DNA from: a virus
Taxonomy: Duplodnaviria; Caudoviricetes
Direction: 5' to 3' (one strand)
Virus record (IMG/VR): IMGVR_UViG_3300023218_000040
Coordinates: 1 to 64,000 of that record
Length of the DNA stretch: 64,000 bases
In this document: one piece after another, positions 17,607 to 59,877 of the stretch
Layout of the letters: every line of letters starts with the position of its first letter
How positions within the stretch are numbered: the first letter of the stretch is position 1
Position numbers and translations under genes: made by a program
The notes under the pieces: model-generated
What the model saw: the letters and a program-made list of their open reading frames with translations, nothing else
What the model was told of the DNA's origin: nothing
Databases searched by the model: none

Positions 17607-17635
17607 AATATGAGTACATCAAAACCTAAAGTCAA
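17607..17635 (-). promoter_or_regulatory. Sigma70-type promoter heading the dut-gp32-uvsX-uvsY-uvsW operon
   Basis: TTGACT-17 nt-CATATT, overlapping the TerL stop codon. Confidence 0.55.
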
Positions 17636-20600
17636 GATATCGATACAGTAGGCGGTAAAGCGATATTATCCGGATGATCAAAGTCGTCGGGATCATAATC
17701 ATCTATGTCAGGGCGAATCAGGTCATCCAGGTCTGGTTCATGGTACCTAATTTCATCTACAAGGTGACACATGAGAATACAGGACATCACGATATCGTCC
17801 TTGGCTCCTTCCTTTGCTGCATACGACTGTCCGCTTTTGACAAATGTCTTTAGCTGCGAGGCTAAATGCTTGGAGCGAACCACAAACAGATTTCTCTCCA
17901 CGAGGTTCTTAAACTCCACAGCATAACGCTTTTTACTGGATACACTGGTCAAAAGGCCACGCCACCTGTTTGTCACCTTGGTATCCATACCTCCACCAAG
18001 AACGTTAATAGAAGTCATGGTCGAGTCAATGAGGAAACCTGGGAAAGTCATCTCGTCTTCGTACTCGATGGCATTCAAGATACCGATACCAAGTCCATTC
18101 CTCTCTACAGAGTAATAAGTTTGGCATCCACCTTCGTGTGCAGGATCATTCATCTGAATCATGAAGATGCGCTTCAAGGTACGACGAAGCATTTTGGTCT
18201 GCTCAACCTGATCCACGTAGTTGTTGTTCCACTCTGCTACCTGTGTCATCTGTGGAATCTCCCACACCTGAATACACGCATCGTCCGCAGCCACACCTTC
18301 TGAGGGATCAAGAACCACACCATAGATTTGGTTCGGAAGAATCTCCTCGTACCAACGCATTCCCCATTTATCGATGAATTGAGGCTTACGAACAGTCTGA
18401 CGAAATGTGGCCATCTTGGCAGCCGAAATCAAGGTGGAGTCTCCGGAAACGAATGCACACTCATACTCACGTAGCCATTCCTCCTCGGTCAAACCCGAAG
18501 AAAGAACCTGACGCTTGAATTTTTCATCACGAAATCCTCCACGACCATCCGGGATCCTAGACCAGTGGGCATGGAAACCAATAAAGCCTTCCAGAGTGTC
18601 ATCGTCACCGATGTCCAGATCTTCTTCCTTGCTGCTATACAGCATACGAGCGTCTTCAGTTTCATACTCGATATCGTATTCTTCAGTATTTTCATCAGGA
18701 ACGTCCAACATCTGCCTTTCAGCAAACACATCTCTCCAAACATCTGAGCTTGGATGCCTAGTAGAGTTGAACCAAATGGAGGCGAATTTGTCTTCGTCTG
18801 TGTTCGGGGTTGATGTGATAATACATTTACCACCAGTATTAGAACCAATCATTCCATTCTGTGCAAAGGTATGAGTACCAGGGACGGTAAAATCATATGT
18901 GATGCATGAACCATCTTCAATGTAAGCTATGCGTTCCCAAGTAGAATTCCTACAATACTCCTGAAAGAATACCTCAAATTTCTCTAGTAGGTGAGACAAT
19001 TTATGACGTACAATAGATTCAACACCACGAAGCCAATTGACGGTAACATGTCTGTTCGGATGATTATCCAAACATTTGTCAAATCTTCGACCGTGTGTTC
19101 TCCACCAGTTTTTGGATTTACCTGATTCTGTTAAAAGATCCACTAAGGTTGAGCGTATATGCCGAACAGGAATCGTAAACAATTTAGAATCATCCTGATT
19201 CCGTATAAAACATACCCTGTTGGCTGCCGTCGTTTTTTTGTTGATTCTAAATCCAATAATATCAAGAAACATTTGAGTTTGACTCAGCGGTATGTACAGA
19301 TTCCAAGAAGGACGGAAGCATTCGGTTATAGCTCGGTTGTCAGCTATTACCCTTGATTTCTGTTCTTTATTAGGAATAATATCCGGGAGGAAACCAAGAT
19401 TTGTTAACAATAATTGTACATCTCTCAATAACTCAAGGCTAGTTGATGTTAAAATCACCCCTTTATTACAAGCACACCCGTCACCATCAAATAGTCCTGA
19501 TAGGTAATTTATAATTGTTTCTCTAGTACCTTGAAGAATTGCATCTGGTACTCTTTTATCGTAACACTTGGCATGTAAATCAACTCCCCACTCAGAAAGT
19601 TGAAATACTAATTTAGAACTGGTACAATATAATTTTGTGGGCTCTGAATTAGATACCCTGAATGATTCTTTTTTTCTTTTCAGGAATACATTTCTAAATT
19701 CAGAATCGGTATTTGAGATCCATACCGTAGATTTTTTTCCGTTGTTACCGGATACCCACCCTTCGGCGGTGTATCCTCCTAACATGTAGGCATCATCCGG
19801 TGTCAATGTAATATTACCGAATAGGTTTAACCCCACATCAACTCTTAGGTAATCATTAGTGGTTAAGTTTTTTGCCTTAACCATTTCCCCGCTATAGCTT
19901 CTTGGAACATATAGGGGGTGATCTAAAGTAGCCTCCAAAAATCTGCCTTTGGAAGTTGTAATCTTTTTAGTAGCAGAAAACGGACTTACGTATCCATGAG
20001 AAACCTTTTCCATTCCTTCTTTTCCATAGATCATAAGGTCATTTCGTTCCTTATAGTCTCCGGTTTTCCATCCAGAGTGTAGATTCCCTATTCTTTCAAA
20101 TCCCCTTTGAGTAAAAACTAGTGTATCACCAGACACGCATGCAATAGTCGGGTAAATGGCTGTCCAAAACTCGTTTGCGATACCAGGACGAACGAATGCA
20201 AACTCGTCCAGGTAGATTAGTGAGTTGGACTTACCTCGACCGGACGTTGCTGTGGTCGCAGTAGCAAGTAGTTTGGAGTTGTTGTCAAATTCTTTAGTGT
20301 GAACTTGATTGACCTTGCATCCTGGTTTTAACCACCATGGTAGTTCTTCGTAAGCATACCACAGACGACTCATGATGTCCTTGGCACCATCGTGATCCTT
20401 GGAAGCAATCAAGATATGCTGATCGTCCTTGAAAATGGCATACCACAAAAGGTAAGCAGCAGCGGTTGCGGTTTTACCACACTGACGAGACAGCAGAGCG
20501 ATTACAAGTCGATTGCTATTGTAGCAATCGACTAGACTTTCCTGGTAATCAAACAAGTTAAACTTCACAGCACCACGAGTTGGATGCTGGATGTATACAT

Positions 20601-20727
20601 ACTCACGGATAAAATATACAGCATCATTGGCACATCGAAGAAGCTCTTCGATTTGCTTAGTGGTATACTCTTGTTGATAGCCAGACGGCTTGATCTTGCC
20701 GCCTTCGTCTTCGGCCAAACGTGGCAT
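17632..20727 (-). CDS. gp17: Terminase large subunit (gp17-like), interrupted by an intein
   Basis: Walker A SRQCGKT, Walker B YLDEFAF, ITSTPN, nuclease LDPSEG and DDIVMS. Confidence 0.96.
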   Translation of the reverse strand: MPRLAEDEGGKIKPSGYQQEYTTKQIEELLRCANDAVYFIREYVYIQHPTRGAVKFNLFDYQESLVDCYNSNRLVIALLSRQCGKTATAAAYLLWYAIFKDDQHILIASKDHDGAKDIMSRLWYAYEELPWWLKPGCKVNQVHTKEFDNNSKLLATATTATSGRGKSNSLIYLDEFAFVRPGIANEFWTAIYPTIACVSGDTLVFTQRGFERIGNLHSGWKTGDYKERNDLMIYGKEGMEKVSHGYVSPFSATKKITTSKGRFLEATLDHPLYVPRSYSGEMVKAKNLTTNDYLRVDVGLNLFGNITLTPDDAYMLGGYTAEGWVSGNNGKKSTVWISNTDSEFRNVFLKRKKESFRVSNSEPTKLYCTSSKLVFQLSEWGVDLHAKCYDKRVPDAILQGTRETIINYLSGLFDGDGCACNKGVILTSTSLELLRDVQLLLTNLGFLPDIIPNKEQKSRVIADNRAITECFRPSWNLYIPLSQTQMFLDIIGFRINKKTTAANRVCFIRNQDDSKLFTIPVRHIRSTLVDLLTESGKSKNWWRTHGRRFDKCLDNHPNRHVTVNWLRGVESIVRHKLSHLLEKFEVFFQEYCRNSTWERIAYIEDGSCITYDFTVPGTHTFAQNGMIGSNTGGKCIITSTPNTDEDKFASIWFNSTRHPSSDVWRDVFAERQMLDVPDENTEEYDIEYETEDARMLYSSKEEDLDIGDDDTLEGFIGFHAHWSRIPDGRGGFRDEKFKRQVLSSGLTEEEWLREYECAFVSGDSTLISAAKMATFRQTVRKPQFIDKWGMRWYEEILPNQIYGVVLDPSEGVAADDACIQVWEIPQMTQVAEWNNNYVDQVEQTKMLRRTLKRIFMIQMNDPAHEGGCQTYYSVERNGLGIGILNAIEYEDEMTFPGFLIDSTMTSINVLGGGMDTKVTNRWRGLLTSVSSKKRYAVEFKNLVERNLFVVRSKHLASQLKTFVKSGQSYAAKEGAKDDIVMSCILMCHLVDEIRYHEPDLDDLIRPDIDDYDPDDFDHPDNIALPPTVSIS
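18838..20139 (-). mobile_element. Intein (434 aa) with a LAGLIDADG homing endonuclease in TerL
   Basis: YPTIA|CVSGDT...HTFAQNGMIGSN|TGGKC; LAGLIDADG-like blocks YMLGGYTAEG and YLSGLFDGDG. Confidence 0.93.
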
Positions 20728-39313: not shown

Positions 39314-40759
39314 ATGAGTAGAAATCACACGACGGCATCTGCTATTTCGAGAGCTATAGGTATTCATGGAGATCGGTACGACTATTCTCTATTCGAATAT
39401 CATGGGGACAAAAACCCTTCTATCATCATTTGTAAAGAGCATGGTCCATTCGAACAACGGGCTGGTAATCATTTACAAGGTCAGGGATGTCCGGATTGTG
39501 GTTTGTTAGATAGGAGTGAAAAACGTAGATTAGGAAAGAAACGTTTTCTAGAACAATGTTTAAAGATACATGGCGAAGCTTATGATTACTCACAATTCGT
39601 CTATCACAATAACAAGACCTCTGGTGTCATTATATGTCCTATCCATGGAGAATTTTCAAAAACCCCTATTGCTCATCTAAACAAAAAACGAGGATGTCCG
39701 TTTTGTACAAACGGGTATTATGAGAGAAAATCCAGTAACACCTTTATTCGTGATGCTAACCTAATTCATGAAGGAAGGTACAATTATGACCGAACAATAT
39801 ATAAAGGAGCATTTGTAAAAACAAATATAGTGTGTCATAAACATGGACAATTTGAGCAAGCACCCAAGGAACATTTACGTGGGAGGGGATGTCCGAAGTG
39901 CTCCACTACTACATCTACTCCACAATTAGAAATAGCCGGATACTTTAAGATGAACGGTTATGAAGTATCCTTAAATGATCGTAATGCTATCGCCCCATTA
40001 GAGTTGGATGTGTTCATACCCGAACTAAAACTTGCTATTGAATATTGTGGATTGTATTGGCATACAGAAAACATTTTAGGTAAAGAATATCATTATGAAA
40101 AGTATAACCGGTGTAAAGAACAAAACATTGTATTGATAACTATTTTCGAAGATGAATGGTTAGAAAAGAAGGATTGTGTTCTCAGAATACTACAAAACAG
40201 AACTGGTAATAATAAGACAATTACCGGTGCTAGAAACTTAGATGTCACAAAAATATCAGCCAGAGATAGTCATATATTTTTAGAAACGTTTCATATTGCC
40301 GGAAAATCTAGAGGATCTGTTCATCTAGGCGCATATCATAAGAACGAATTAATAGGAGTCATGACATTTGGTAAACCTACTAGACAATCTACCCATGAAT
40401 GGGAACTTCTAAGATTTGCTACCTCTGGGTTATATCCAGGATTGGCATCAAAGATGTTTAGAACATTTGTGAAGGATTATAATCCAAATACCGTAGTGAC
40501 CTTTGCAGATTGTAGATGGTTTTCTGGAAAAGTATTTGAGAGAATGGGATTTAAGTTTCAAAAACAGATACCTATAGATTACTCATACGTTAAAAATAAA
40601 AGGCGATACCACAAGTCGTTTATGAGAAAAGAACGTGTGCAAAACAGAGAATGCATCCCCACTGAAGGGAAAACAGAAAAAATGTTATCGAAAGAATTAG
40701 GATATTCCAGAATTTGGGATTGTGGAAAAAATCGATATGAATGGTTCAACCACGAATAG
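39314..40759 (+). CDS. Free-standing endonuclease: 3 Zn-ribbon repeats + Vsr-like nuclease + GNAT-like domain
   Basis: LELDVFIP.LKLAIEYCGLYWH, FEDEW, PGLASKMF, VVTFADCRW, RIWDCG. Confidence 0.85.
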   Translation: MSRNHTTASAISRAIGIHGDRYDYSLFEYHGDKNPSIIICKEHGPFEQRAGNHLQGQGCPDCGLLDRSEKRRLGKKRFLEQCLKIHGEAYDYSQFVYHNNKTSGVIICPIHGEFSKTPIAHLNKKRGCPFCTNGYYERKSSNTFIRDANLIHEGRYNYDRTIYKGAFVKTNIVCHKHGQFEQAPKEHLRGRGCPKCSTTTSTPQLEIAGYFKMNGYEVSLNDRNAIAPLELDVFIPELKLAIEYCGLYWHTENILGKEYHYEKYNRCKEQNIVLITIFEDEWLEKKDCVLRILQNRTGNNKTITGARNLDVTKISARDSHIFLETFHIAGKSRGSVHLGAYHKNELIGVMTFGKPTRQSTHEWELLRFATSGLYPGLASKMFRTFVKDYNPNTVVTFADCRWFSGKVFERMGFKFQKQIPIDYSYVKNKRRYHKSFMRKERVQNRECIPTEGKTEKMLSKELGYSRIWDCGKNRYEWFNHE

Positions 40760-44883: not shown

Positions 44884-44984
44884 TCAATTACCGGCATAGC
44901 TGAGTAGGTACTTAACTAAATACTGGCACATTAAGCAGACATTCAAGTCTGTCAATTTAATTAATTCATTAGGAGACAATAATT

Positions 44985-47270
44985 ATGGCATCGAAGGTTC
45001 TTCTTCCACAGACTGGCAATGCCGCTCCCGCTCCTGGTGGTACTGGTGCGATTACTTCGTTCCCAGGTTCTCAGAGTGTTCGCATCATTCAGGTGAACCC
45101 AGGTCCGAATTCCGGTCCAGTTACTGCTACTTTGGAGGTTAAGGGAAGCAACAAGCCAGCCCCTGGCGCTACTGATTTTCAGACGCTAGCCACTATCGAT
45201 CTAACTGGTCATCAGCCCGGTTCGAATGGTAGTTTCACTTTGTACATTCGTGATTCTTCCACGAGCGTTCAGGTTGTTGCCACTGCATTCACTGCTGGTC
45301 AGGTTGCAGTATTCGGTGACGGCAACGACGCAGCCAAGCTAGCTGGTAGCTCTGGTACTACTTTGTCTCAGGCAACTGCTGTTGTTACTTCGCAGCTAAA
45401 CGTGACCGTTGTTGGTCAGAATGTACATATCGCCGCTCCGGTCGTTCCATCGATCACTTCCGACGACGTGACCTATGCTCTGAACTTTAATGAGACCGTT
45501 ACTGACGTTCTTGATCGTCTAGACAGCTTCAACGAGACCATCACTGCTGCCGGTGTTGTAGAAGCTGACGTAAGCCTGCTTGCCGGTAAGGCTGCATATG
45601 GTCTAACCATGGCTGACCTCTGCAAGCTAGCAGATGTTGATGCATCAGCCACTGAACTTAATCAATCTGTCGGTTTGACTGGAAACATTCAGACCCAGCT
45701 TGACGCTATTACTGGTGGCTTCGCCATTGGTCCTGGCGTTGATATCACCGGTCTGGTTGTTGCTGCCGCTGACATCAATACACTGTTTGACGTAAGTCCA
45801 ACAGTCACGATGACTCAACTAAACAACTTTCTGACTGGTTTGGTTGCCACCGCTGGTGACTTGAACTCTTTGGCAGGAACTGCTGGTGACGTAACCGCTG
45901 TTGACTTTGTGAAGCTAGGCAACATTACCGCTTCGGCTGCTGAAATCAACGTTTTGAACGGATTGCTAACAACTGCTTCTGAATTGAATGTTCTGGCTGG
46001 TTCTGGTATCGTTTCTGGCGATATCGCCGCAATCGTTGGCCTCGGAGCAACTGGTGTAACGGCTACAGAGTTCGCTTTCCTTTCCGGTCTATCCGAGAAC
46101 GTACAGGCTGCTTTGAATACAATTACTCCGCTTCCAGGTCTTACCTCTTCGGTTAACGATCTGAACCTGTTGACTGGTGCCTTCGCTGGTACTGGTGCAT
46201 ACTCTGGCGGTGCTATCACTGCTGCCGAGATTTCTCGACTGGACGGTATTACCTCCAATATTCAGGCCCAGATTGACAGTAAGCGTAATGTTGCTGACAC
46301 CATCGGTATTTCTGAGATTACGGGTGCCTCTATTACCACTACGGAGCTTAACTTCCTTCAGGGTGCTACCTCGAATATCCAGGCTCAGATCGATGCAATT
46401 GGAACTGGTTTCCTATCGTTGACTGGTGGAGACATGACCGGACCTCTGTGTCTTGCTGATGGTTCTGTTGGTTCGCCTTCACTGTGCTTCACCAACGACC
46501 CAGGCAATGATACCGGTATCTTCCGTACTGCTCCTGGGTTTGCTTTCACCGTTGATGCTGCACAGGTTGCTCGTTATGACGGAGTTTCCCTAACGTTGGG
46601 TACTGCCGCTGTAACTGCTGAGCCTTTGATCCGCCACAGCGGTTTTGGTTTAACCAATCCGCAATACAGCTTCGTTGGTGACGACGATACGGGTGTAACT
46701 CGTACCGGTGCTGACCGTATTGTTCTTGCTGCTGGTGGTGTGGCTCAGGTTGACGCTGACGGTGTTGCTAATCAGTTGACCCTTGGTGGTCCTACTGCTT
46801 TCAACAACGATGTTGTGGTCTCTGGTCTCTTTGGTGGTATCAAGGAGCTTGGTCGAGCAACCGTTGATGGTTCTTCTGTAGCTAACACGGCCTTGTACAC
46901 GGTACCTGCCGGACGTACAGCAATTGTTACCGCTATCCTAGTACGTCTGTCCAACGCCGTAGTTGGTGGTGGTAGCTATACCGGTAGCGATAACACCATG
47001 CGTATGAACATCGGTTTCAGTCCTCCATACGGTCAGATCGTTGACAACATCAACAACACAACAATCTTCAATCCGTCTTATGGCTTCGACACTAATATGC
47101 AGGTTATGCCGCTGGGTTGGGGTGACAACGTGTTCCCTGCCGTTTCGGGTTCTGCTGGTAAAGACTATCAGGCTCTGGCATCAGGCGCTGTTCTTACCGC
47201 TAGCGTCTCGGTTGGTGCCAACTTCGACTCGTTCGACATGGACCTCATTGTGCTGGGTTACGAACTGTAA
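44985..47270 (+). CDS. Fibre-like structural protein, paralogous to 4830-7187
   Basis: 761 aa; AAE(I/L)N.L.G.T.NIQ.Q repeats; shared C-terminal domain (LYTVP...IVLGYEL vs LFTVP...IVLGIEL); CTAAATACTGG at 44916. Confidence 0.8.
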   Translation: MASKVLLPQTGNAAPAPGGTGAITSFPGSQSVRIIQVNPGPNSGPVTATLEVKGSNKPAPGATDFQTLATIDLTGHQPGSNGSFTLYIRDSSTSVQVVATAFTAGQVAVFGDGNDAAKLAGSSGTTLSQATAVVTSQLNVTVVGQNVHIAAPVVPSITSDDVTYALNFNETVTDVLDRLDSFNETITAAGVVEADVSLLAGKAAYGLTMADLCKLADVDASATELNQSVGLTGNIQTQLDAITGGFAIGPGVDITGLVVAAADINTLFDVSPTVTMTQLNNFLTGLVATAGDLNSLAGTAGDVTAVDFVKLGNITASAAEINVLNGLLTTASELNVLAGSGIVSGDIAAIVGLGATGVTATEFAFLSGLSENVQAALNTITPLPGLTSSVNDLNLLTGAFAGTGAYSGGAITAAEISRLDGITSNIQAQIDSKRNVADTIGISEITGASITTTELNFLQGATSNIQAQIDAIGTGFLSLTGGDMTGPLCLADGSVGSPSLCFTNDPGNDTGIFRTAPGFAFTVDAAQVARYDGVSLTLGTAAVTAEPLIRHSGFGLTNPQYSFVGDDDTGVTRTGADRIVLAAGGVAQVDADGVANQLTLGGPTAFNNDVVVSGLFGGIKELGRATVDGSSVANTALYTVPAGRTAIVTAILVRLSNAVVGGGSYTGSDNTMRMNIGFSPPYGQIVDNINNTTIFNPSYGFDTNMQVMPLGWGDNVFPAVSGSAGKDYQALASGAVLTASVSVGANFDSFDMDLIVLGYEL

Positions 47271-53071: not shown

Positions 53072-53451
53072 CGGTCTGCAAGCCTCTCTACAAGCTCTCT
53101 GATGTATTGGAAGGTCTTCGGTGCCTTGTGGGCTAGGTCTGCTAATCCAGAACCCAAGGGAGCCACAGGGAAGACCACAATGCCCCCAGCGAACAGGTGC
53201 TGAATCACCGGTTCCATGTCCTCATTAATCCATTCTTTATTTCTCTCAAGTTGGTCATCGGACAGGAATGCAAATCGGTCCTTGGTAGGAGTCCTCTTCG
53301 TCCTCACGCCCACTGCATTGGATTTGCCACGGCAGACCATAGCCAACCCTCCACGTCCTCTACGCAGGTTATTATCACCAAACACGTAGAGAACGCTTGG
53401 ATTCATATCAAGGTCAGCTTCCTCGATACGAGACTGAAAGATAACAGGCAT
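53062..53451 (-). CDS. Macrodomain-like phage protein (VFGDN...G.GG...NA.G)
   Basis: LYVFGDNN..RGRGG.A...RG..NAVG.RTK and P..LGSGLA; TAATG-coupled to the nucleotidyltransferase gene. Confidence 0.6.
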   Translation of the reverse strand: MPVIFQSRIEEADLDMNPSVLYVFGDNNLRRGRGGLAMVCRGKSNAVGVRTKRTPTKDRFAFLSDDQLERNKEWINEDMEPVIQHLFAGGIVVFPVAPLGSGLADLAHKAPKTFQYIRELVERLADRYG

Positions 53452-54335
53452 TAGTATATTTCACTCTTGATGAGCCGCATGATGTCGATATCCACTTGAT
53501 CGTTCAGATCATTCCACTCAGGCGTACCTTTGTGATCATGATCCAACACTGCATCAGAAAATTTGAAATTGCTACCGTCCTCAAATGACTTGAACATCAT
53601 TCTTTTGGCACAGGCGTGCAGTTCTTCATAACTCTTGTTGTAGAGTTCAAAGTCAACTTCTCCACGCTTGATCTTCAGCACCACTTCGGCAGCAAATCCA
53701 GTCGCAGCAAGAGGCATTTCCTCACCATCCAGAAGGTCGATGATGAACGTTAGAAGCCGATAGGCGTGCGATGCGCTCTTCCAGTTTATCGGTTCGTCCG
53801 GAGTACCGTACATTGCACGCTTATTCATCTGCTCAGCCGTAAAAAACGTAGCAAGTACGGTATCCCCGACATTCATCTTGACCAAGGTGCGAAGCATGTC
53901 CATCACCGAATAGACTTTGGGGTTCACGCACGTTGCCAACGAGAACAAAGGCTCGAAAAAGTTGATGTTGCCCTTCAGCGCATGCTTACGGTAGTTCTGC
54001 ATCGGATGAAGCTCGCAATCGAGCTTGTCCGTAACAAGACTAAAACGCTGGTTGCGACCGAAATACAGGTCTTCGAATGAGGGCAGGTAAACTGCCTTCA
54101 TGTCGATATCGGAATCCTCGGTCACGCACCTATAGTTCAGAGAACCAACCGCAGCCACAAACGCAACCTGACGGCCCACGTAGTGCTCCTCGTAGGCTTT
54201 CAGGTGAGGGGCCAGGGAACTGTAAACGCCATAGGCATCAGACAGCAAGGGAACCGACTCAGGCTCCTTAAGAGTGTCATACACTAAGCCCACAGTTCTC
54301 TGTGCCTCATTCAGCTTTTTTTCGAACAGGTCCAT
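53451..54335 (-). CDS. Pol-beta-superfamily nucleotidyltransferase (RlaP/NrdC.11-like)
   Basis: VGSLNY...EDSDID.K.VY.P, N.NFFE.LF, K.ASHAYRLL, LKIKRGE. Start MDLFEKK. Confidence 0.85.
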   Translation of the reverse strand: MDLFEKKLNEAQRTVGLVYDTLKEPESVPLLSDAYGVYSSLAPHLKAYEEHYVGRQVAFVAAVGSLNYRCVTEDSDIDMKAVYLPSFEDLYFGRNQRFSLVTDKLDCELHPMQNYRKHALKGNINFFEPLFSLATCVNPKVYSVMDMLRTLVKMNVGDTVLATFFTAEQMNKRAMYGTPDEPINWKSASHAYRLLTFIIDLLDGEEMPLAATGFAAEVVLKIKRGEVDFELYNKSYEELHACAKRMMFKSFEDGSNFKFSDAVLDHDHKGTPEWNDLNDQVDIDIMRLIKSEIY

Positions 54336-54349
54336 CGTACATCTCTGGG

Positions 54350-54397
54350 TTGACAAATCTTCCTGAGTAATATACACTATGGACTTTACCGAGTCAA
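54350..54397. promoter_or_regulatory. Overlapping divergent sigma70 promoters for the RNA ligase and nucleotidyltransferase genes
   Basis: Plus strand TTGACA-17-TACACT (54350-54378); minus strand TTGACT-17-TATATT (54397-54369). Confidence 0.75.
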
Positions 54398-54401
54398 GGC
54401 A

Positions 54402-55070
54402 ATGAACACACCACCCAAATATCCAAGCACCCCACATTGGCCCGCCTCACAGACGGTCCATCGGGACGACTCTCTTCACCAGACTCCAGCAGAGTTTGTG
54501 GGACGGGAAGTTGTAATCACTGAGAAGGTGGATGGTGGAAATACTTGCCTCTTCAATGGGGGAGTGTATGCTCGCTCGGTGGCTGCCCCATCGACGGCTA
54601 AGTGGTTTGCTATGGTGAAGAAACATCACGCCTGGAAGTTCAATTGTCAGCTTGATATTGCGGTCTATGGCGAGGACATCTATGGTGTTCATTCAATCAA
54701 GTACGCCCCTGTGGCTGAAGAAGAAACCTACCGTATCTTCGCCATTCGGGCTCTGAATACCGACCCAGATCGCTTCTACTCTTGGGACGACCTGGAGGCT
54801 TTCGGGGCGCAGTGGGGCATCAAGACGGTCCCTGTGATATATCGTGGGGTCTTCGACTCCATATATGATATCACGAACTTCTTCGAGACTGAGCTTTCTA
54901 ATGAAAGCGGTATTGGAGGGCAGGACCGTGAGGGGTTCGTCATGCGGGTCGCTGACAGCTTCCCTGCGGACGAATTCGCTCTTCGAGTGTGCAAGTACGT
55001 GCGTCCTAACCATGTTCAGACGGATGAGCATTGGACGAAGAACTGGAAGCCATGCGAGATTAAGCGTTAG
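54402..55070 (+). CDS. ATP-dependent RNA ligase-family protein
   Basis: Motif I TEKVDG, YGE, FAI, EGFVMR, KYVR; KYPSTPH.P.S N-terminus. Confidence 0.88.
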   Translation: MNTPPKYPSTPHWPASQTVHRDDSLHQTPAEFVGREVVITEKVDGGNTCLFNGGVYARSVAAPSTAKWFAMVKKHHAWKFNCQLDIAVYGEDIYGVHSIKYAPVAEEETYRIFAIRALNTDPDRFYSWDDLEAFGAQWGIKTVPVIYRGVFDSIYDITNFFETELSNESGIGGQDREGFVMRVADSFPADEFALRVCKYVRPNHVQTDEHWTKNWKPCEIKR

Positions 55071-55075
55071 GGCAA

Positions 55076-55098
55076 GGCGGGAGGGCTTCCCTCCCGCC
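55076..55098. terminator. Hairpin between the convergent RNA ligase and hsp20 genes
   Basis: GGCGGGAGGG-ctt-CCCTCCCGCC. Confidence 0.7.
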
Positions 55099-55110
55099 GC
55101 CCTCGTCTTA

Positions 55111-55611
55111 TCAGGCCGACTTGACAGCCTTCAGGGTTTCCGTAGAACCGGGAATCACGTCTTCTGCTCCGTTCATATTAATAACTTTAAGCTTCCGTGG
55201 CTTTTCTGATTCCGGAATGACCCTGGTCACTGGAATAGTCAGCAAGCCATTCCTCATGCTCGGAACGCCCACTTCCATGTTGTCACCTAGACGGATCTCC
55301 AGGCTGAAATCACGACGAGCAATCCCCCGATGTAGGTACTCTTCGTTGTTGCCAGTTAGTAGACGACCAGAGATGGACAAATTACGGTTCTTTACTTCCA
55401 CATCGATTTGGTCAGGATCAAATCCAGTAGCAGCAACTTCTACCATGTACTTGTCCTCATCGATCTTGATGATGTTGTACTTTGGATAGTTGACATCCGG
55501 CGCATTCACATAGTTTCGAAGTTCGCTGAAAAGCGGTCCAAAACCTAGGACACGTGGATGATGAAAGGTTGATTCGAGTTCATCGAATAGACGAGTTAGT
55601 TCGTTACTCAT
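55111..55611 (-). CDS. hsp20: Small heat-shock protein (Hsp20/IbpA-like)
   Basis: YPKYNIIK, VEVA.TGF, YLHRGIARRDF, NGLL.I. Confidence 0.95.
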   Translation of the reverse strand: MSNELTRLFDELESTFHHPRVLGFGPLFSELRNYVNAPDVNYPKYNIIKIDEDKYMVEVAATGFDPDQIDVEVKNRNLSISGRLLTGNNEEYLHRGIARRDFSLEIRLGDNMEVGVPSMRNGLLTIPVTRVIPESEKPRKLKVINMNGAEDVIPGSTETLKAVKSA

Positions 55612-55615
55612 TTTA

Positions 55616-55672
55616 GTATCCTCCTAGTTAGCAAGGTTACATTGTATAAGGCCCCAAAAGGCGACCTCACAC
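55616..55672 (-). ncRNA. ROSE-like RNA thermometer in the hsp20 5' UTR
   Basis: Hairpin 1 GUGUGAGGUC..UUUU..GGCCUUAUAC; hairpin 2 CCUU(G)CU-AACU-AG GAGG pairs UUGCU with the SD and leaves a bulged G. Confidence 0.7.
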
Positions 55673-55713
55673 TATATTTATGTCTCTTGCTCTGGAGAAT
55701 CAAGGTTTTGAAC

Positions 55714-56229
55714 TTACTTGAATACATCTGATATCTTGGAGCCAAATCGAGAGGGAGAAAAAAATCCCATCAGTTTGCGTTGTTTCTCGTCACCACGACC
55801 GCTGGTCACACGAACCTCGAAGCCTATGTATTTGCCGTTCCCGTAACCGTTCTTTTCGAAATGCTGACGCACCGCTTGCTTCATCATCGGTACAGAGGCA
55901 GCTACGATCCCGCTGGGGGTTTTGGCAATGTACAATTGAGCCTTGCCTTTCATGTCCCGACCCTCGATACCTTTATCAATGTCCTTCATGATCTCGAAAA
56001 TGATATCTTTTCCGGTCTCTCGTCCCTTGATCTGAACAGTAAGCTGCTTCTTATTAGTTTTGTTCCTGATGTATGCATCGATCTTGTCGTGCATGTCCGC
56101 ACTCTGCGATGCAGAAACGATCTCGTAGTCCGTTCCTTCGAGCATCTTTGCAACCGCATCGAAGATTTGCTTCTCCAGGGCTTTGCCTCTGGCTACTCGG
56201 TCCTGAAAGCTTCTATCTGCTATTACCAT
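55714..56229 (-). CDS. PD-(D/E)XK-family nuclease-like protein
   Basis: G..LE, DMHDKIDA, VQIK.R; late motif GTAAATA at 56255-56261 and GGAG SD. Confidence 0.65.
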   Translation of the reverse strand: MVIADRSFQDRVARGKALEKQIFDAVAKMLEGTDYEIVSASQSADMHDKIDAYIRNKTNKKQLTVQIKGRETGKDIIFEIMKDIDKGIEGRDMKGKAQLYIAKTPSGIVAASVPMMKQAVRQHFEKNGYGNGKYIGFEVRVTSGRGDEKQRKLMGFFSPSRFGSKISDVFK

Positions 56230-57752
56230 CGGATAGTCTCCATACTGTTGTCTCTATTTACATCCCACTGCAATCGTAATTTTCCACAATCATATATAGA
56301 GTAATATCCTATATCATTCAACATTTGCTCCTTTGTAAGCAAAGAATTTGTTGCTTCACCAGAATCTAACATGCTCCTTTTTGTCTTGAATCTGCGGTGT
56401 TTTCTGTCTACAAAGTTAGTCCAAAATTTCGCTGGAGCAGTAGCACCATCAACTATAAACCCGGATATGGATTTGAAAGAACCAGTAAACCAACGTCGAT
56501 CTACAAACGCTACTACCGATGTATATCCTTTTTCACGTATTGCATGCTTAAACATCTTGGATCCCACACCAGGGTTGTTCTTTCCATTAGTCACAAATCT
56601 CTTCATTTCCACGACATCTTTTCTACCACGTTCATCTGACGGGTAACCAAACACCATTACCGAAATCAATTCATCTCCGTGGTAAGCTCCAATTCGGTAA
56701 TTGCCGGATTGTCCAGCACCAAGCAAATGATGCTTGTTCAAAAATTCTGATGCTGTAGCCCACGAAACCTCAAGAATAGTTGTGTTTCTGGCATACACAC
56801 CTTTGGGTGAACACCCTAAAAAATGTGCTAACGTGCTCTTAACGATTTCTTGCTTGTCTCTCCATTCATCCTCGAAAACTGTTATTAATCTAATACCTTT
56901 TTGTTCGCACAATTCGTGTTTTTTCAAGTGATACCTTTTATCTTTATTACCAAAGAAAGAAGAATGAGTGCGCAATCCACAATATTCTATTCCTAAATTG
57001 ATAGCTGGTATAAGAATATCGATTTCATATGGATTTATGGTATCTCTATCATTCTCTACTACTTCTACATTAAAACTCTTAACAAAATCACAAACTTCTT
57101 TTTCTGCTTTAGATGTTTGTTTTCCTATGGCACATTTTGGACAACCCACACCGGTATACATATGATGACCAGCATATTGCTCAACTTCACCATGTTTGGG
57201 GCAATCGATTTTTACCTTTTCATATTGATTGGTATATTCTACATTCGGATAACTGTATTTTCCATCATGTTTTTTTATGGAACGTTTAATGAATTCCTCA
57301 TTACCAACCCGTCGCTTTTCATTGGCACATTTTGGACATCCAGAACCATTTTTATGTCTAGAAACTTTCTGTTTAAACAATCCGTGATCAGGACATTCTA
57401 TTTCAAGTATATGACGGCTTCCTCTAAAATTTTCAGGCTTTTTGATGGGGTATTTGTACTTTTTTCCATGAATAGCAGTAAACTCTTCAATAAATTTGTT
57501 CCATCCCAGTTGTCTACCAGGACGGGTGAATGTTGTACATACGGGACAAAATATGTTTCGTTGAAGTATTCGATTGAATTTAGTTTTACAAACATTACAA
57601 ACAAATGGATAACTTATCCACTTACCATTCCTATGCTTTCCTTTATACTCTTTCAGTGTAAATTCTAAATGAATATCTGGCAACAGATCATTACTGATTT
57701 TATCATATGATCTCTGTAATTTTGTTGTTGATACTTTTTCCGACATGTTCAT
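56223..57752 (-). CDS. Free-standing endonuclease: Zn ribbons + Vsr-like nuclease + GNAT-like domain (tandem copy A)
   Basis: YEIDILIP...GIEYCGLRTH, FEDEW, NNPGVGSKMF, VAFVDRRWF, IYDCGKLR. Confidence 0.85.
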   Translation of the reverse strand: MNMSEKVSTTKLQRSYDKISNDLLPDIHLEFTLKEYKGKHRNGKWISYPFVCNVCKTKFNRILQRNIFCPVCTTFTRPGRQLGWNKFIEEFTAIHGKKYKYPIKKPENFRGSRHILEIECPDHGLFKQKVSRHKNGSGCPKCANEKRRVGNEEFIKRSIKKHDGKYSYPNVEYTNQYEKVKIDCPKHGEVEQYAGHHMYTGVGCPKCAIGKQTSKAEKEVCDFVKSFNVEVVENDRDTINPYEIDILIPAINLGIEYCGLRTHSSFFGNKDKRYHLKKHELCEQKGIRLITVFEDEWRDKQEIVKSTLAHFLGCSPKGVYARNTTILEVSWATASEFLNKHHLLGAGQSGNYRIGAYHGDELISVMVFGYPSDERGRKDVVEMKRFVTNGKNNPGVGSKMFKHAIREKGYTSVVAFVDRRWFTGSFKSISGFIVDGATAPAKFWTNFVDRKHRRFKTKRSMLDSGEATNSLLTKEQMLNDIGYYSIYDCGKLRLQWDVNRDNSMETIRW

Positions 57753-57826
57753 ATTGATAATGTAACACAACTATAATGACAATCAAGATTTTACACTTGT
57801 TATGTACTTATCAACATTTGAACATA

Positions 57827-57871: not shown

Positions 57872-58000
57872 TTATCCAATTAGTGAATTTCCTTTCTTCA
57901 GATTTTCCTGCTTGGTGAGAAGCTGCAAGTTTCCTTCAATATGAAGCCCGCACACACTCTCTCCATGCAATGGAATGATGTGGTCAACGTGATTCTTCAC
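57872..58000 (-). CDS. 42-aa HNH-motif mini-ORF or HNH remnant
   Basis: MKNHVDHIIPLHGESVCGLHIEGNLQLLTKQENLKKGNSLIG; its GTG overlaps the upstream TGA (GTGA). Confidence 0.6.
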   Translation of the reverse strand: MKNHVDHIIPLHGESVCGLHIEGNLQLLTKQENLKKGNSLIG

Positions 58001-59877
58001 GTTGATTCCCAAACCAATCTGAGTTTGCCGCAATCATAAATGGGGTAGTATCCCAGGCTGTTTAACATTTGCTTCTTCGTCATATTTGGGTCAACCCCAT
58101 CCTTCTCTATCATGCTTTTTTTGGTTTTGAATCTACGCTGTTCTCTAGTGGAAAAATCAGTCCAATACTTCGTCGGCTGCGTCTTTCCATCTACTACAAA
58201 ACCAGAAAGCGCTTTGAAAGAACCAGTGAACCACCGTCTATCAACAAAGGCTATCACTTTAGTATACACCTTCTCGTCAACCGCATGCTTGAACATCTTG
58301 GAACCAACACCGGGGTTGTTCCTGCCATTCGTGACGAATCGCTTCATCTCGATGATATCCTCCATCCCACGCTCGTCGGAAGGATAACCAAACACCATGA
58401 CCGCTACTAACTCATCACCATGATACGCCCCGATTCTGTAGTTTCCTGGCTGACCAGCACCAAGAAGATGGTGCTTTTCCAAAAACCCGGAAGCAATCGA
58501 CCACGGAATATCATGTATTCTTGTTTTTCTGGCGAATACACCCTTCGGAGTGCATCCTAGAAAGTGCGACAACGTGCTCTTAACGATTTCTTGCTTGTCC
58601 CTCCACTCGTCCTCAAATATGGTAATCAATCGATATCCAGCATCTTCTGCCTTATCATGCTTCCGCACATGATAGTTGCGGTCCTTTCCTCCCTCACTTG
58701 AATGCCAATACAGACCACAATACTCTATAGCTAACTTCTTCTCTGGAATTACGATGTCGAGTTCGTATGGTGCTATAATACTTCGGTCTCGTTGAATTAC
58801 ATTGCCCTCACCAACCAAAGATGATACGAATTCGTATACCTCGATTTCACCTTTTGAAGTGATGCATGAACATATGGGACACCCTTGTCCTATCCAATGA
58901 TTCTTCGGTATTTGCTCAAAATCTCCATGCTCTTTACACGTTATCGTGACCTTCTTGTCAGCCAAGACATATTGCATCTTGGAGTAGTCATATCGGTCAC
59001 CGTGTGCCAATTTGAATCTCGCTATCACATCTTCTTGTGTGTTTCTGTTTGCATCAGCCATGCATTTAGGACAGCCATGACCTTTTTTGTGTAGTTTTGG
59101 AAGTTGTTCAAAATACCCGTGGTTTTTACACGTTATGGTAACGGGCGTACCATCACTAACGTATTTTGTTTTCGAATAATCATACTTCCCCCCGTGTATT
59201 TTCTTGAAATGTTCTATGACTTCTTCGGTGGTAAAAAGTCTGGTTCCACCACACTTCGGGCACCCGTGCCCACCATATAGATGGCCTCCAGCAAGTTGCT
59301 CAAAGCTTCCGTGAAGTGGGCAAATAATGGTCACCGGTCTGTTTTGGGATACGTAATCCACCAACGAATAATCGTATCGGTCGTTGTGTGCCTCTTTTGA
59401 CCTGGAAATAAAGGTATCGGTATCTAGTGAGCGAATTTCTATCGCACAAGACTTGCATCCACTTTTGAGATGGGAATGTGGTAGTTGTTCCCATACACCG
59501 TGTTTTGGGCACCGAATAGCTATTTTGGTATGTGCGTTCTTGTAGTCCACCAAAGAGTAGTCGTAGAGGTCGCCATGCACTGCTTGCGCCTCTTCAATGA
59601 ATCTTTTTTTGTCCCAAGGTTTGCGTCCACCAACACCCGGTCTCTTTTTACCTTTGGAAGTAGTACCACGTCTATCATTGAAGCATCCGGGGCAACCCGA
59701 AGTATTCAACACATGGTTCTTCGCCGTGGGGAAAAAATCGCCATGGATCTTACAAGTTACACGAATTTTTGACTGAAGATTACGGAATTCGGATAGGTCA
59801 TACTCATACCTATCACCATGAACTTCACAAGCTTTATCTAAAACTAAATCGGATGTCCATCGAATTCTGGATGACAT
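57997..59877 (-). CDS. Free-standing endonuclease: 5 Zn-ribbon repeats + Vsr-like nuclease + GNAT-like domain (tandem copy B)
   Basis: Five C..HG.(F/W) repeats; YELDIVIP.KKLAIEYCGLYWH; C-terminal half highly similar to copy A. Confidence 0.87.
   Translation of the reverse strand: MSSRIRWTSDLVLDKACEVHGDRYEYDLSEFRNLQSKIRVTCKIHGDFFPTAKNHVLNTSGCPGCFNDRRGTTSKGKKRPGVGGRKPWDKKRFIEEAQAVHGDLYDYSLVDYKNAHTKIAIRCPKHGVWEQLPHSHLKSGCKSCAIEIRSLDTDTFISRSKEAHNDRYDYSLVDYVSQNRPVTIICPLHGSFEQLAGGHLYGGHGCPKCGGTRLFTTEEVIEHFKKIHGGKYDYSKTKYVSDGTPVTITCKNHGYFEQLPKLHKKGHGCPKCMADANRNTQEDVIARFKLAHGDRYDYSKMQYVLADKKVTITCKEHGDFEQIPKNHWIGQGCPICSCITSKGEIEVYEFVSSLVGEGNVIQRDRSIIAPYELDIVIPEKKLAIEYCGLYWHSSEGGKDRNYHVRKHDKAEDAGYRLITIFEDEWRDKQEIVKSTLSHFLGCTPKGVFARKTRIHDIPWSIASGFLEKHHLLGAGQPGNYRIGAYHGDELVAVMVFGYPSDERGMEDIIEMKRFVTNGRNNPGVGSKMFKHAVDEKVYTKVIAFVDRRWFTGSFKALSGFVVDGKTQPTKYWTDFSTREQRRFKTKKSMIEKDGVDPNMTKKQMLNSLGYYPIYDCGKLRLVWEST

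Follow-up and report, generated by a model that had tools for sequence, protein, structure and literature searches.

ROSE-type RNA thermometers have been described for heat-shock genes of alpha- and gamma-proteobacteria. In bacteria, expression of ibpA is under sigma-32, and a bulged G in the strand pairing with the Shine-Dalgarno (SD) motif is known from ROSE1 (G83). The Pseudomonas ibpA elements comprise two hairpins within a 5' untranslated region (UTR) of 61–62 nt (Krajewski, Nagel and Narberhaus 2013, PMC3669281). Hairpin II contains the SD, imperfectly paired with U(U/C)GCU, and the AUG is unpaired; the GC-rich hairpin I is not temperature responsive, and only hairpin II melts and controls translation (PMC3669281). 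The locus described here is the 5' leader of an hsp20 gene on the genome of a tailed phage, IMG/VR record IMGVR_UViG_3300023218_000040. The stretch analysed (the window) is the first 64 kb of this 204-kb record, which is estimated to be about 55% complete. We conclude, with moderate confidence, that the leader is a short ROSE-like translational control element, kin to those of Pseudomonas ibpA and of alpha-proteobacterial hsp20 genes.

The hsp20 gene (55111–55611, minus strand) encodes a protein of 166 aa that belongs to PF00011 (E 4.2e-13). The predicted mRNA has a 5' untranslated leader of about 57–60 nt. Hairpin 1 (55644–55672, minus strand) has 12 bp (10+2) with a bulged G at 55662, a UUUU loop and a GCC...GG(G) top; its bulge coincides in position with that of the Rfam ROSE_3 consensus. 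Hairpin 2 (55616–55640, minus strand), as folded by RNAfold, contains the ribosome-binding site. Its outer stem is GUA/UAC, followed by an A.A mismatch, and its loop is AACU. In the core, CCUU (55636–55633) pairs with GAGG (55623–55620) and CU (55631–55630) with AG (55625–55624), so that the SD AGGAGG (55625–55620) is wholly paired with the anti-SD CCUUGCU (55636–55630), from which G55632 is bulged. The inner 2 bp beside the bulged G are part of the minimum-energy fold at 30 °C and below. The ATG (55609–55611, minus strand) is unpaired and lies 8 nt past the SD. Overall the leader folds with -22 kcal/mol (z = -2.83), a value equalled by 2 of 200 shuffled sequences. An earlier note on this DNA had described a two-hairpin leader after TAAATA, with a 12-bp 5' hairpin and an SD hairpin with a bulged G, and both the sequence and RNAfold show this description to be accurate in every particular. 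As a control within the same genome, an anti-SD hairpin in a loose definition was found at 4 of 154 start codons with a strong SD, and CUUGCU at hsp20 only.

The window Hsp20 has few near relatives. In a protein search of 5.8 billion sequences only two were more than 45% identical to it, at 63% and 60%; the short contigs that carry them are referred to as L007 and L008. Both keep TTGACT-N17-(CA)TAAATA and have a hairpin 1 of different sequence at the same place. Their hairpin 2 is almost letter-for-letter identical to that of the window, with changes confined to the loop. Exact-pattern scans for closer relatives, using the 21 specified bases of the window, gave no match in metagenome and genome contigs; protein-pattern scans with the three-member subfamily likewise gave none in metagenome and viral contigs, and the subfamily stands at three sequences. 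For a wider comparison, 80 viral hsp20 loci chosen by protein patterns alone were combined with five cultured phages (Syn9, C48C1, HTVC115P, S-RSM4 and S-CAM8), giving 77 distinct leaders. In 74 of these, the SD is paired in a core that consists of 3 bp, then a bulged purine, then 2 bp, and the survey of phage hsp20 leaders proposed in the earlier note has brought out a conserved, covarying family. The bulged purine is G in 62 of the 74 leaders and A in the other 12. The base pair flanking the SD core covaries, being C-G in 11 leaders and U-A in 28. Hairpin 1 has a common (U/C)-G-CC...GG-G top with a bulged G across the family, above a lower stem that covaries; the RNAalifold consensus contains 7 pairs, 6 of them with compensatory changes. 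In alignment A3, 86.9% of hairpin 1 cells are paired, compared to 65.4% for shuffled alignments. Covariation scores 0.557 vs 0.217, with none of 500 shuffles as high and all slid registers far lower. The window's own pairing register does no better than shuffles on A3, because it is offset by one column from the majority; it is the consensus register that gives the strong signal. A subgroup consisting of L148, L160 and about 15 similar loci, with leaders ending ...ACUUGCUGAAAAGGAGCUAAGU, is folded differently by RNAfold, which favours an alternative hairpin ACUUGCU / AGC-U-AAGU. This places part of the SD in a loop, and two competing folds are possible in these leaders.

A covariance model (R1) was made from a first leader set and used to collect 57 leaders of other phages, all of which end at an hsp20 start codon, with no off-target match in 135 kb; it was then rebuilt from these as R2. 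The window, L007 and L008 are excluded from both models. R2 matches the window at 55609–55675 (minus strand) with 37.9 bits and an E-value of 4e-7, the best match in the 64 kb, and across the 204-kb genome the hsp20 leader (E 1.2e-6) is the sole match at E <= 1; these E-values are rough, as the calibration was short. A search of the 204 kb for further copies of the leader found none. In the alignment fitted to R2, which itself leans towards structure, 96% of cells pair, compared to 80% in shuffles; hairpin 2 is paired in 100% of cells, and the SD helix varies only by U or C opposite G. On the conservation and covariance-model results together, a chance origin of the leader structure is rejected. 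R2 also matches weakly at 44928–44987 (plus strand; 18.9 bits, E 0.05), up to the ATG of an open reading frame (ORF) of 761 aa with no assigned family. It is probably due to chance, because the alignment leaves the SD hairpin no loop.

Among Rfam families, ROSE_3 (RF02523) is the top one for the window leader, which is aligned over model positions 1–69 of 69 with both hairpin bulges included; the consensus of this family also shows a bulge in the anti-SD strand. All ROSE_3 features of sequence and structure that were looked for are present in the leader. The score is 16.7 bits (E 0.16 on 131 nt), and the gathering score is 43. The Rfam search named in the earlier note as a check therefore returned the expected family at full length and a score below its threshold, and the description of the leader as ROSE-type stands as far as the two-hairpin architecture, the pairing of U(U/C)GCU with the SD around a bulged G and the full-length match are concerned. 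Scores of other leaders against ROSE_3 are spread widely: 15.7 bits for L007, 26.8 for C48C1 (L128, Kyanoviridae), 28 for the marine viral contig L010, 40.7 for the viral contig L016, and 69.2 for a Pseudomonas-type ibpA leader in an unverified record, 'phage Y7'. R2 recognises the Pseudomonas-type leader in return (23 bits). With recognition in both directions, bacterial ROSE_3 grades into the phage leaders without a break, and the window stands at the far end. When the phage's own genome was searched with RF02523, the hsp20 leader was missed and two weak matches appeared, at 185418 and 164194 (8.4 bits). Both were rejected, and the one at 185418 is an ordinary promoter region.

The SD hairpin is near-exclusively tied to chaperone genes. 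When viral contigs were scanned blind for its 17-nt motif, AACCTTGCT-N(3-8)-AGGAGGAT, at least 117 matches resulted. Among the 117 listed, 55 are directly before an hsp20 homologue (of many protein lineages), 22 are before a 67-aa ORF translationally coupled to hsp20, 2 are before dnaK, and about 10 run off the end of a contig. Applied to bacterial genomes, the scan placed 72 of 120 matches directly before hsp20, and those with printed titles are all from alpha-proteobacteria (Pelagibacteraceae; Brevundimonas and other Caulobacteraceae). BLAST of a 45-nt SD region against phage records was uninformative, returning only ribosome-binding sites of Firmicutes phages. In the marine viral lineage with the 67-aa ORF (L009:2629–2832, plus strand), this ORF has no Pfam or PHROG family; its stop codon overlaps the hsp20 start (ATGA), and the ROSE-like leader therefore appears to control a two-gene unit. 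One of the dnaK cases (L098:3344–5386, minus strand; also found in L100) encodes a DnaK of 681 aa (PF00012, E 8e-263) on a viral contig. Its leader has the AACCUUGCU...AGGAGGAU hairpin directly after a tRNA gene, and there is no separate first hairpin.

The pattern of conservation bears on another view, in which the leader senses nothing: hairpin 1 would stabilise the 5' end, the level of translation would be fixed by the weak SD hairpin, and the cassette would have come from a bacterial donor and persisted through inertia. A stabilising effect of stable 5' hairpins on mRNA is known (PMC3669281), the predicted stability of hairpin 2 is low (phage median -2.7 kcal/mol at 37 °C), and gene and leader could have been acquired jointly, as the hsp20 genes of alpha-proteobacteria carry the same 17-nt motif. 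However, hairpin 2 is near-invariant in the subfamily while the protein drops to 60% identity and the sequence of hairpin 1 changes. Changes in the anti-SD are limited to the pair-preserving exchange of U and C opposite G, and the flanking pair covaries. Viral hsp20 leaders have also persisted behind no fewer than three types of promoter and in phages whose hosts differ widely, which inertia fails to explain. A constitutive cassette is for these reasons considered improbable.

The promoter is recognisable in the window. A -35-like TTGATT (55698–55703, minus strand) precedes the -10 region CATAAATA (55675–55682, minus strand), which includes TAAATA (55680–55675); L007 and L008 have TTGACT at the same 17-nt spacing and an identical CATAAATA. 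Transcription is predicted to start at about 55670–55667, a few bases past TAAATA. Across the genome TTGAC-N18-TAnnnT occurs 29 times (5.7 expected) and TTGAYT-N17-TAAATA 3 times (0 expected). The -10 region also agrees at 7 of 8 positions with the T4-type late promoter TATAAATA, which lies about 6 nt before the start and needs no -35. Because TTGAYT stands at a fixed 17-nt spacing in all three relatives and the motif is enriched genome-wide, the hsp20 promoter points to the -35/-10 class. A promoter-like motif, cTTGAC(t/a)-N15-TATAAATA, recurs 5' of tRNA genes and other genes of this phage, with sites outside the window at 149478, 185092, 196204, 196413 and 201659 (G000, plus strand). The hsp20 promoter is of the phage's general -35/-10 class, which also stands in front of its tRNA genes. 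Accordingly, the proposal in the earlier note that Hsp20 is made during capsid assembly finds no support, the promoter being of this general class and not clearly of the T4 late type. In Pseudomonas phage PA5oct, TTGAC and AT-rich -10 boxes have been reported around transcription starts, together with dependence on the host polymerase (PMC7318152). A simple sigma-70 promoter scan of the window did not call the hsp20 promoter, because its -10 hexamer ends in A. A possible internal promoter in the leader, TACAAT at 55646–55641, was noticed by eye and rejected, as a -35 is missing and neither L007 nor L008 keeps the motif.

Within the promoter, on the minus strand, lies a segment AUUCUCC..AGCAAG (55686–55700) that is complementary to the SD and anti-SD. 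It would exist only in read-through RNA, and a same-strand ORF with no assigned function (55714–56229) does end 102 nt 5' of hsp20. In one rival reading the main control would be temporal, of the kind known from T4: in RNA running on from 55714–56229, the segment 55700–55686 would pair with anti-SD and SD and silence hsp20, so that translatable mRNA would come only from the gene's own promoter. The long fold pairs the segment with 55636–55618, in an interrupted helix of 15 bp (z = -3.97). A similar helix, partly different in sequence, forms in L008, where the gene upstream is likewise on the same strand, but the L008 fold is no better than that of its shuffles (z = -0.79). AGCAAG is found upstream of the transcription start in all three subfamily members, at differing positions (940–945 in L007, 583–602 in L008); in L007, where a divergent gene lies upstream, nothing but AGCAAG pairs. 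In the wider family the signal is absent: AGCAAG occurs in 1 of 72 other leaders, for a total of 4 of 75 compared to 3.5 expected. Silencing of read-through RNA would in addition leave the conserved local hairpins unexplained, and it is regarded as very unlikely.

As a ROSE-like element, the leader would work as follows. Transcription would begin a few bases past TAAATA, from the phage's ordinary -35/-10 promoter class, and the stable hairpin 1 at the 5' end would probably serve as a folding aid or as protection against decay. The weak hairpin 2 would keep AGGAGG paired with CCUU(G)CU, in a helix made metastable by the bulged G. At low temperature the 30S subunit would be excluded from the hsp20 mRNA; with rising temperature hairpin 2 would open and Hsp20 would be translated. 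That hairpin 2 melts, and in which direction and range the leader responds, is suggested by modelling. The predicted probability of an open SD is 0.08 at 10 °C and climbs to 0.33 at 50 °C, compared to 0.04 and 0.34 for a Pseudomonas-type leader. Deletion of G55632 in silico makes hairpin 2 about 3.6 kcal/mol more stable at 37 °C and leaves the SD closed at all temperatures. The folding energy predicted for hairpin 2 in isolation goes from -3.7 kcal/mol at 37 °C to -8.0 at 15 °C. If the leader is a thermometer, the weaker hairpin 2 means that its set-point is probably below that of Pseudomonas ibpA.

Several points weigh against this interpretation. The ROSE_3 score is below the gathering level, and 12 leaders of the family have an A in place of the bulged G. 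A perfect AGGAGG may outcompete the weak hairpin 2, in which case repression could be slight at moderate temperatures. Nearest-neighbour folds are sensitive to context, and the addition of coding sequence changed those of L008 and Syn9. The promoter, TTGATT-N17-TAAATA, is not of the heat-shock (sigma-32) type, and the start site is placed by prediction. The hsp20 locus was matched in four DNA metagenome runs, all from one study, and in no RNA run. Finally, where the habitat is stable, a lytic phage may experience little change of temperature during an infection.

The leader might instead be mainly an autoregulatory operator or aggregation sensor, with Hsp20 binding and repressing its own leader, and titration of Hsp20 by unfolded proteins, such as structural proteins of the phage, raising translation. 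IbpA of E. coli works like this on its ROSE-like 5' UTR, and gamma-proteobacterial IbpA needs R93 for it (PMC10474464). Self-repression of IbpA through the ibpA 5' UTR is also reported in bioRxiv 10.1101/2020.04.20.050740. The window Hsp20 keeps an arginine equivalent to R93 (R100 in GIARRDF), and so do P0002, P0003, Syn9 and HTVC115P. This says little, because that arginine is widely conserved among small heat-shock proteins. The tie of the leader to chaperone genes regardless of promoter type would fit a signal other than heat-shock transcription, and hairpin 1 shows, in its GCC..GGG top and its bulge, the kind of sequence conservation that a site of protein binding might have. On the other hand, the cationic pair R97/K98 required in IbpA is replaced by Ser-Leu in the window Hsp20, as in the non-regulating IbpB (PMC10474464), and the Hsp20 of PA5oct has at the R93 position a lysine, which is inactive in IbpA (PMC10474464). 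Self-repression by Hsp20 is possible and compatible with thermosensing by the ROSE-like leader, but less supported; as the main function of the leader it is rather unlikely.

The phage itself is a jumbo myovirus, with genes for a tail sheath, a large terminase and tail fibres, and a second contig of 360 kb carries a protein identical to the window Hsp20. Judged by tail sheath, its closest relatives in culture are the PA5oct group of Pseudomonas phages, at 39.6% identity, and jumbo phages of Klebsiella, at about 36%. In the earlier note the leader was taken as a hint of a proteobacterial host. The leader is present on the Synechococcus cyanophages Syn9, S-RSM4 and S-CAM8 and on a Pelagibacter phage, and since Synechococcus phages carry it too, it does not diagnose such a host. 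The suggestion of one survives on other grounds, the tail-sheath affinity (36–40%) to PA5oct and Klebsiella phages, by which a gamma-proteobacterial host seems plausible. The window Hsp20 is at most 42% identical to bacterial homologues, and no close one was found. HSP70 and Cpn10 genes were sought in the 204 kb of this phage, and none was found.

Directly 3' of the hsp20 stop codon, between convergent genes, is a GC-rich hairpin without a U tract (55070–55102, minus strand), probably a terminator or 3' stabiliser. It recurs at the same place in L008 and shows in both as a spurious mir-483 match; a terminator scan of the window did not call it. With a hairpin following the stop codon, also in a relative, hsp20 looks like a self-contained unit. 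The convergent, adjoining gene (54402–55070, plus strand) encodes an RNA ligase (PF09414), and a gene for an RlaP-like nucleotidyltransferase (53451–54437, minus strand) is nearby, making this an RNA-repair neighbourhood; in L005, a contig of the same phage, a DUF7831 gene comes next. Several large paralogous ORFs (56223–57770, 57997–59877 and 39314–40759) contain DUF723 along with Mom-like, HNH or REase domains and resemble homing endonucleases. Two of them sit just upstream of the hsp20 unit, and one has 75% nucleotide identity over 91 nt to homing endonuclease genes of the PA5oct group. The large terminase subunit (17632–20727, minus strand; 1031 aa) is interrupted at about residues 245–628 by an intein (Intein_splicing and LAGLIDADG_3, a LAGLIDADG homing endonuclease), flanked by T4-type terminase segments.

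No account of a ROSE-like element before a phage hsp20 gene emerged from a search of full-text literature, outside which many subscription-journal papers lie. The PA5oct paper (PMC7318152) does not mention a ROSE-like hsp20 leader, and a 2024 review merely speculates that viral RNAs might act like thermometers. Here a ROSE-like leader is near-universal on sampled virus-encoded hsp20, stands under phage promoters, and occurs in phages of proteobacteria and of cyanobacteria. To this the window adds a PA5oct-related member with a -35/-10 promoter, a link to a cultured Pseudomonas phage, an SD hairpin lengthened by the GUA/UAC stem, and a subfamily-specific upstream complement to the anti-SD. If the leader senses temperature or aggregation, lytic phages control their own chaperone post-transcriptionally, without the host heat-shock sigma factor, and this would bear on the response of phage production to environmental temperature. 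The leaders also form a natural series of minimal, weak ROSE hairpins for the study of set-point tuning, and with PA5oct as a cultured relative the question of sensing is directly testable. A broader scenario, which we put forward tentatively, is that phages of many lineages (those sampled being PA5oct-related jumbo myoviruses, T4-like cyanophages and pelagiphages) captured the ROSE leader with hsp20, in places with dnaK, and that the leader, freed from the sigma-32 regulon and under their own promoters, became a host-independent post-transcriptional sensor that adjusts the supply of chaperone to temperature or to the burden of misfolded virion proteins. The latter signal would apply if Hsp20 binds its own leader. 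Were the scenario true, a dependence on temperature would be built into the yield of environmental phages that are very abundant.

Compared to known systems, the leader is most like the ROSE_3 elements of Pseudomonas ibpA. The two share a leader of about 60 nt with two hairpins and a small heat-shock gene downstream; a GC-rich hairpin I with a (U/C)-G-CC ... GG-G top and a bulged G; and an SD placed in hairpin II against U(U/C)GCU, with a bulged G and an unpaired AUG. They differ in that hairpin II is weaker here (-3.7 vs -8.0 kcal/mol at 37 °C) and in that the leader is virus-borne and under a phage promoter; the temperature response has been shown for Pseudomonas and is predicted for the window element. 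Alpha-proteobacterial hsp20 leaders have an identical 17-nt module, AACCUUGCU-loop-AGGAGGAU. The Pelagibacteraceae leader also has two hairpins, and its hairpin 1 (AGUCGCC-UAAU-GGGGCUU) is very close to that of the window (GGUCGCC-UUUU-GGGGCCUU). In contrast to the window, the Pelagibacteraceae leaders are preceded by cTTGAAA...CCCATAT, which we take to be a sigma-32-type promoter, and those of Caulobacterales are longer and GC-rich, with more hairpins.

Among phages, the hsp20 leaders of PA5oct, Syn9, S-RSM4, S-CAM8 and HTVC115P resemble the window in having an SD hairpin with a bulged G and a UGCC..GGG hairpin upstream; they are not annotated, and no description of them was found in the literature searched. 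In PA5oct (PQE65_gp225; L216:1230–1358, corresponding to about 171930–172057 of NC_071039.1), GATAAATA is followed by three hairpins, of which the last, with a bulged G, masks the SD; the number of hairpins and the sequence CUU(G)C set this leader apart from that of the window. The annotated Hsp20 gene of PA5oct stands among genes for ClpX-like, ribosomal S21 and ClpS-like proteins. Syn9, S-RSM4 and S-CAM8 have no TTGACA-like -35, and an AT-rich -10-like motif (AAATAA or ATAACTA) lies upstream; the Pelagibacter phage HTVC115P has TTGACA-N17-TATAAT before its leader. A phage RNA thermometer of another kind is lambda cIII. A further phage-linked one is the fourU element of blyA in prophage SPbeta (PMC10586365). 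Both, like ROSE, are temperature-responsive structures in the mRNAs of phage genes that gate access to the ribosome-binding site, but in structural class, gene and logic they are unrelated to the window leader, being neither of the ROSE type nor on a chaperone gene.

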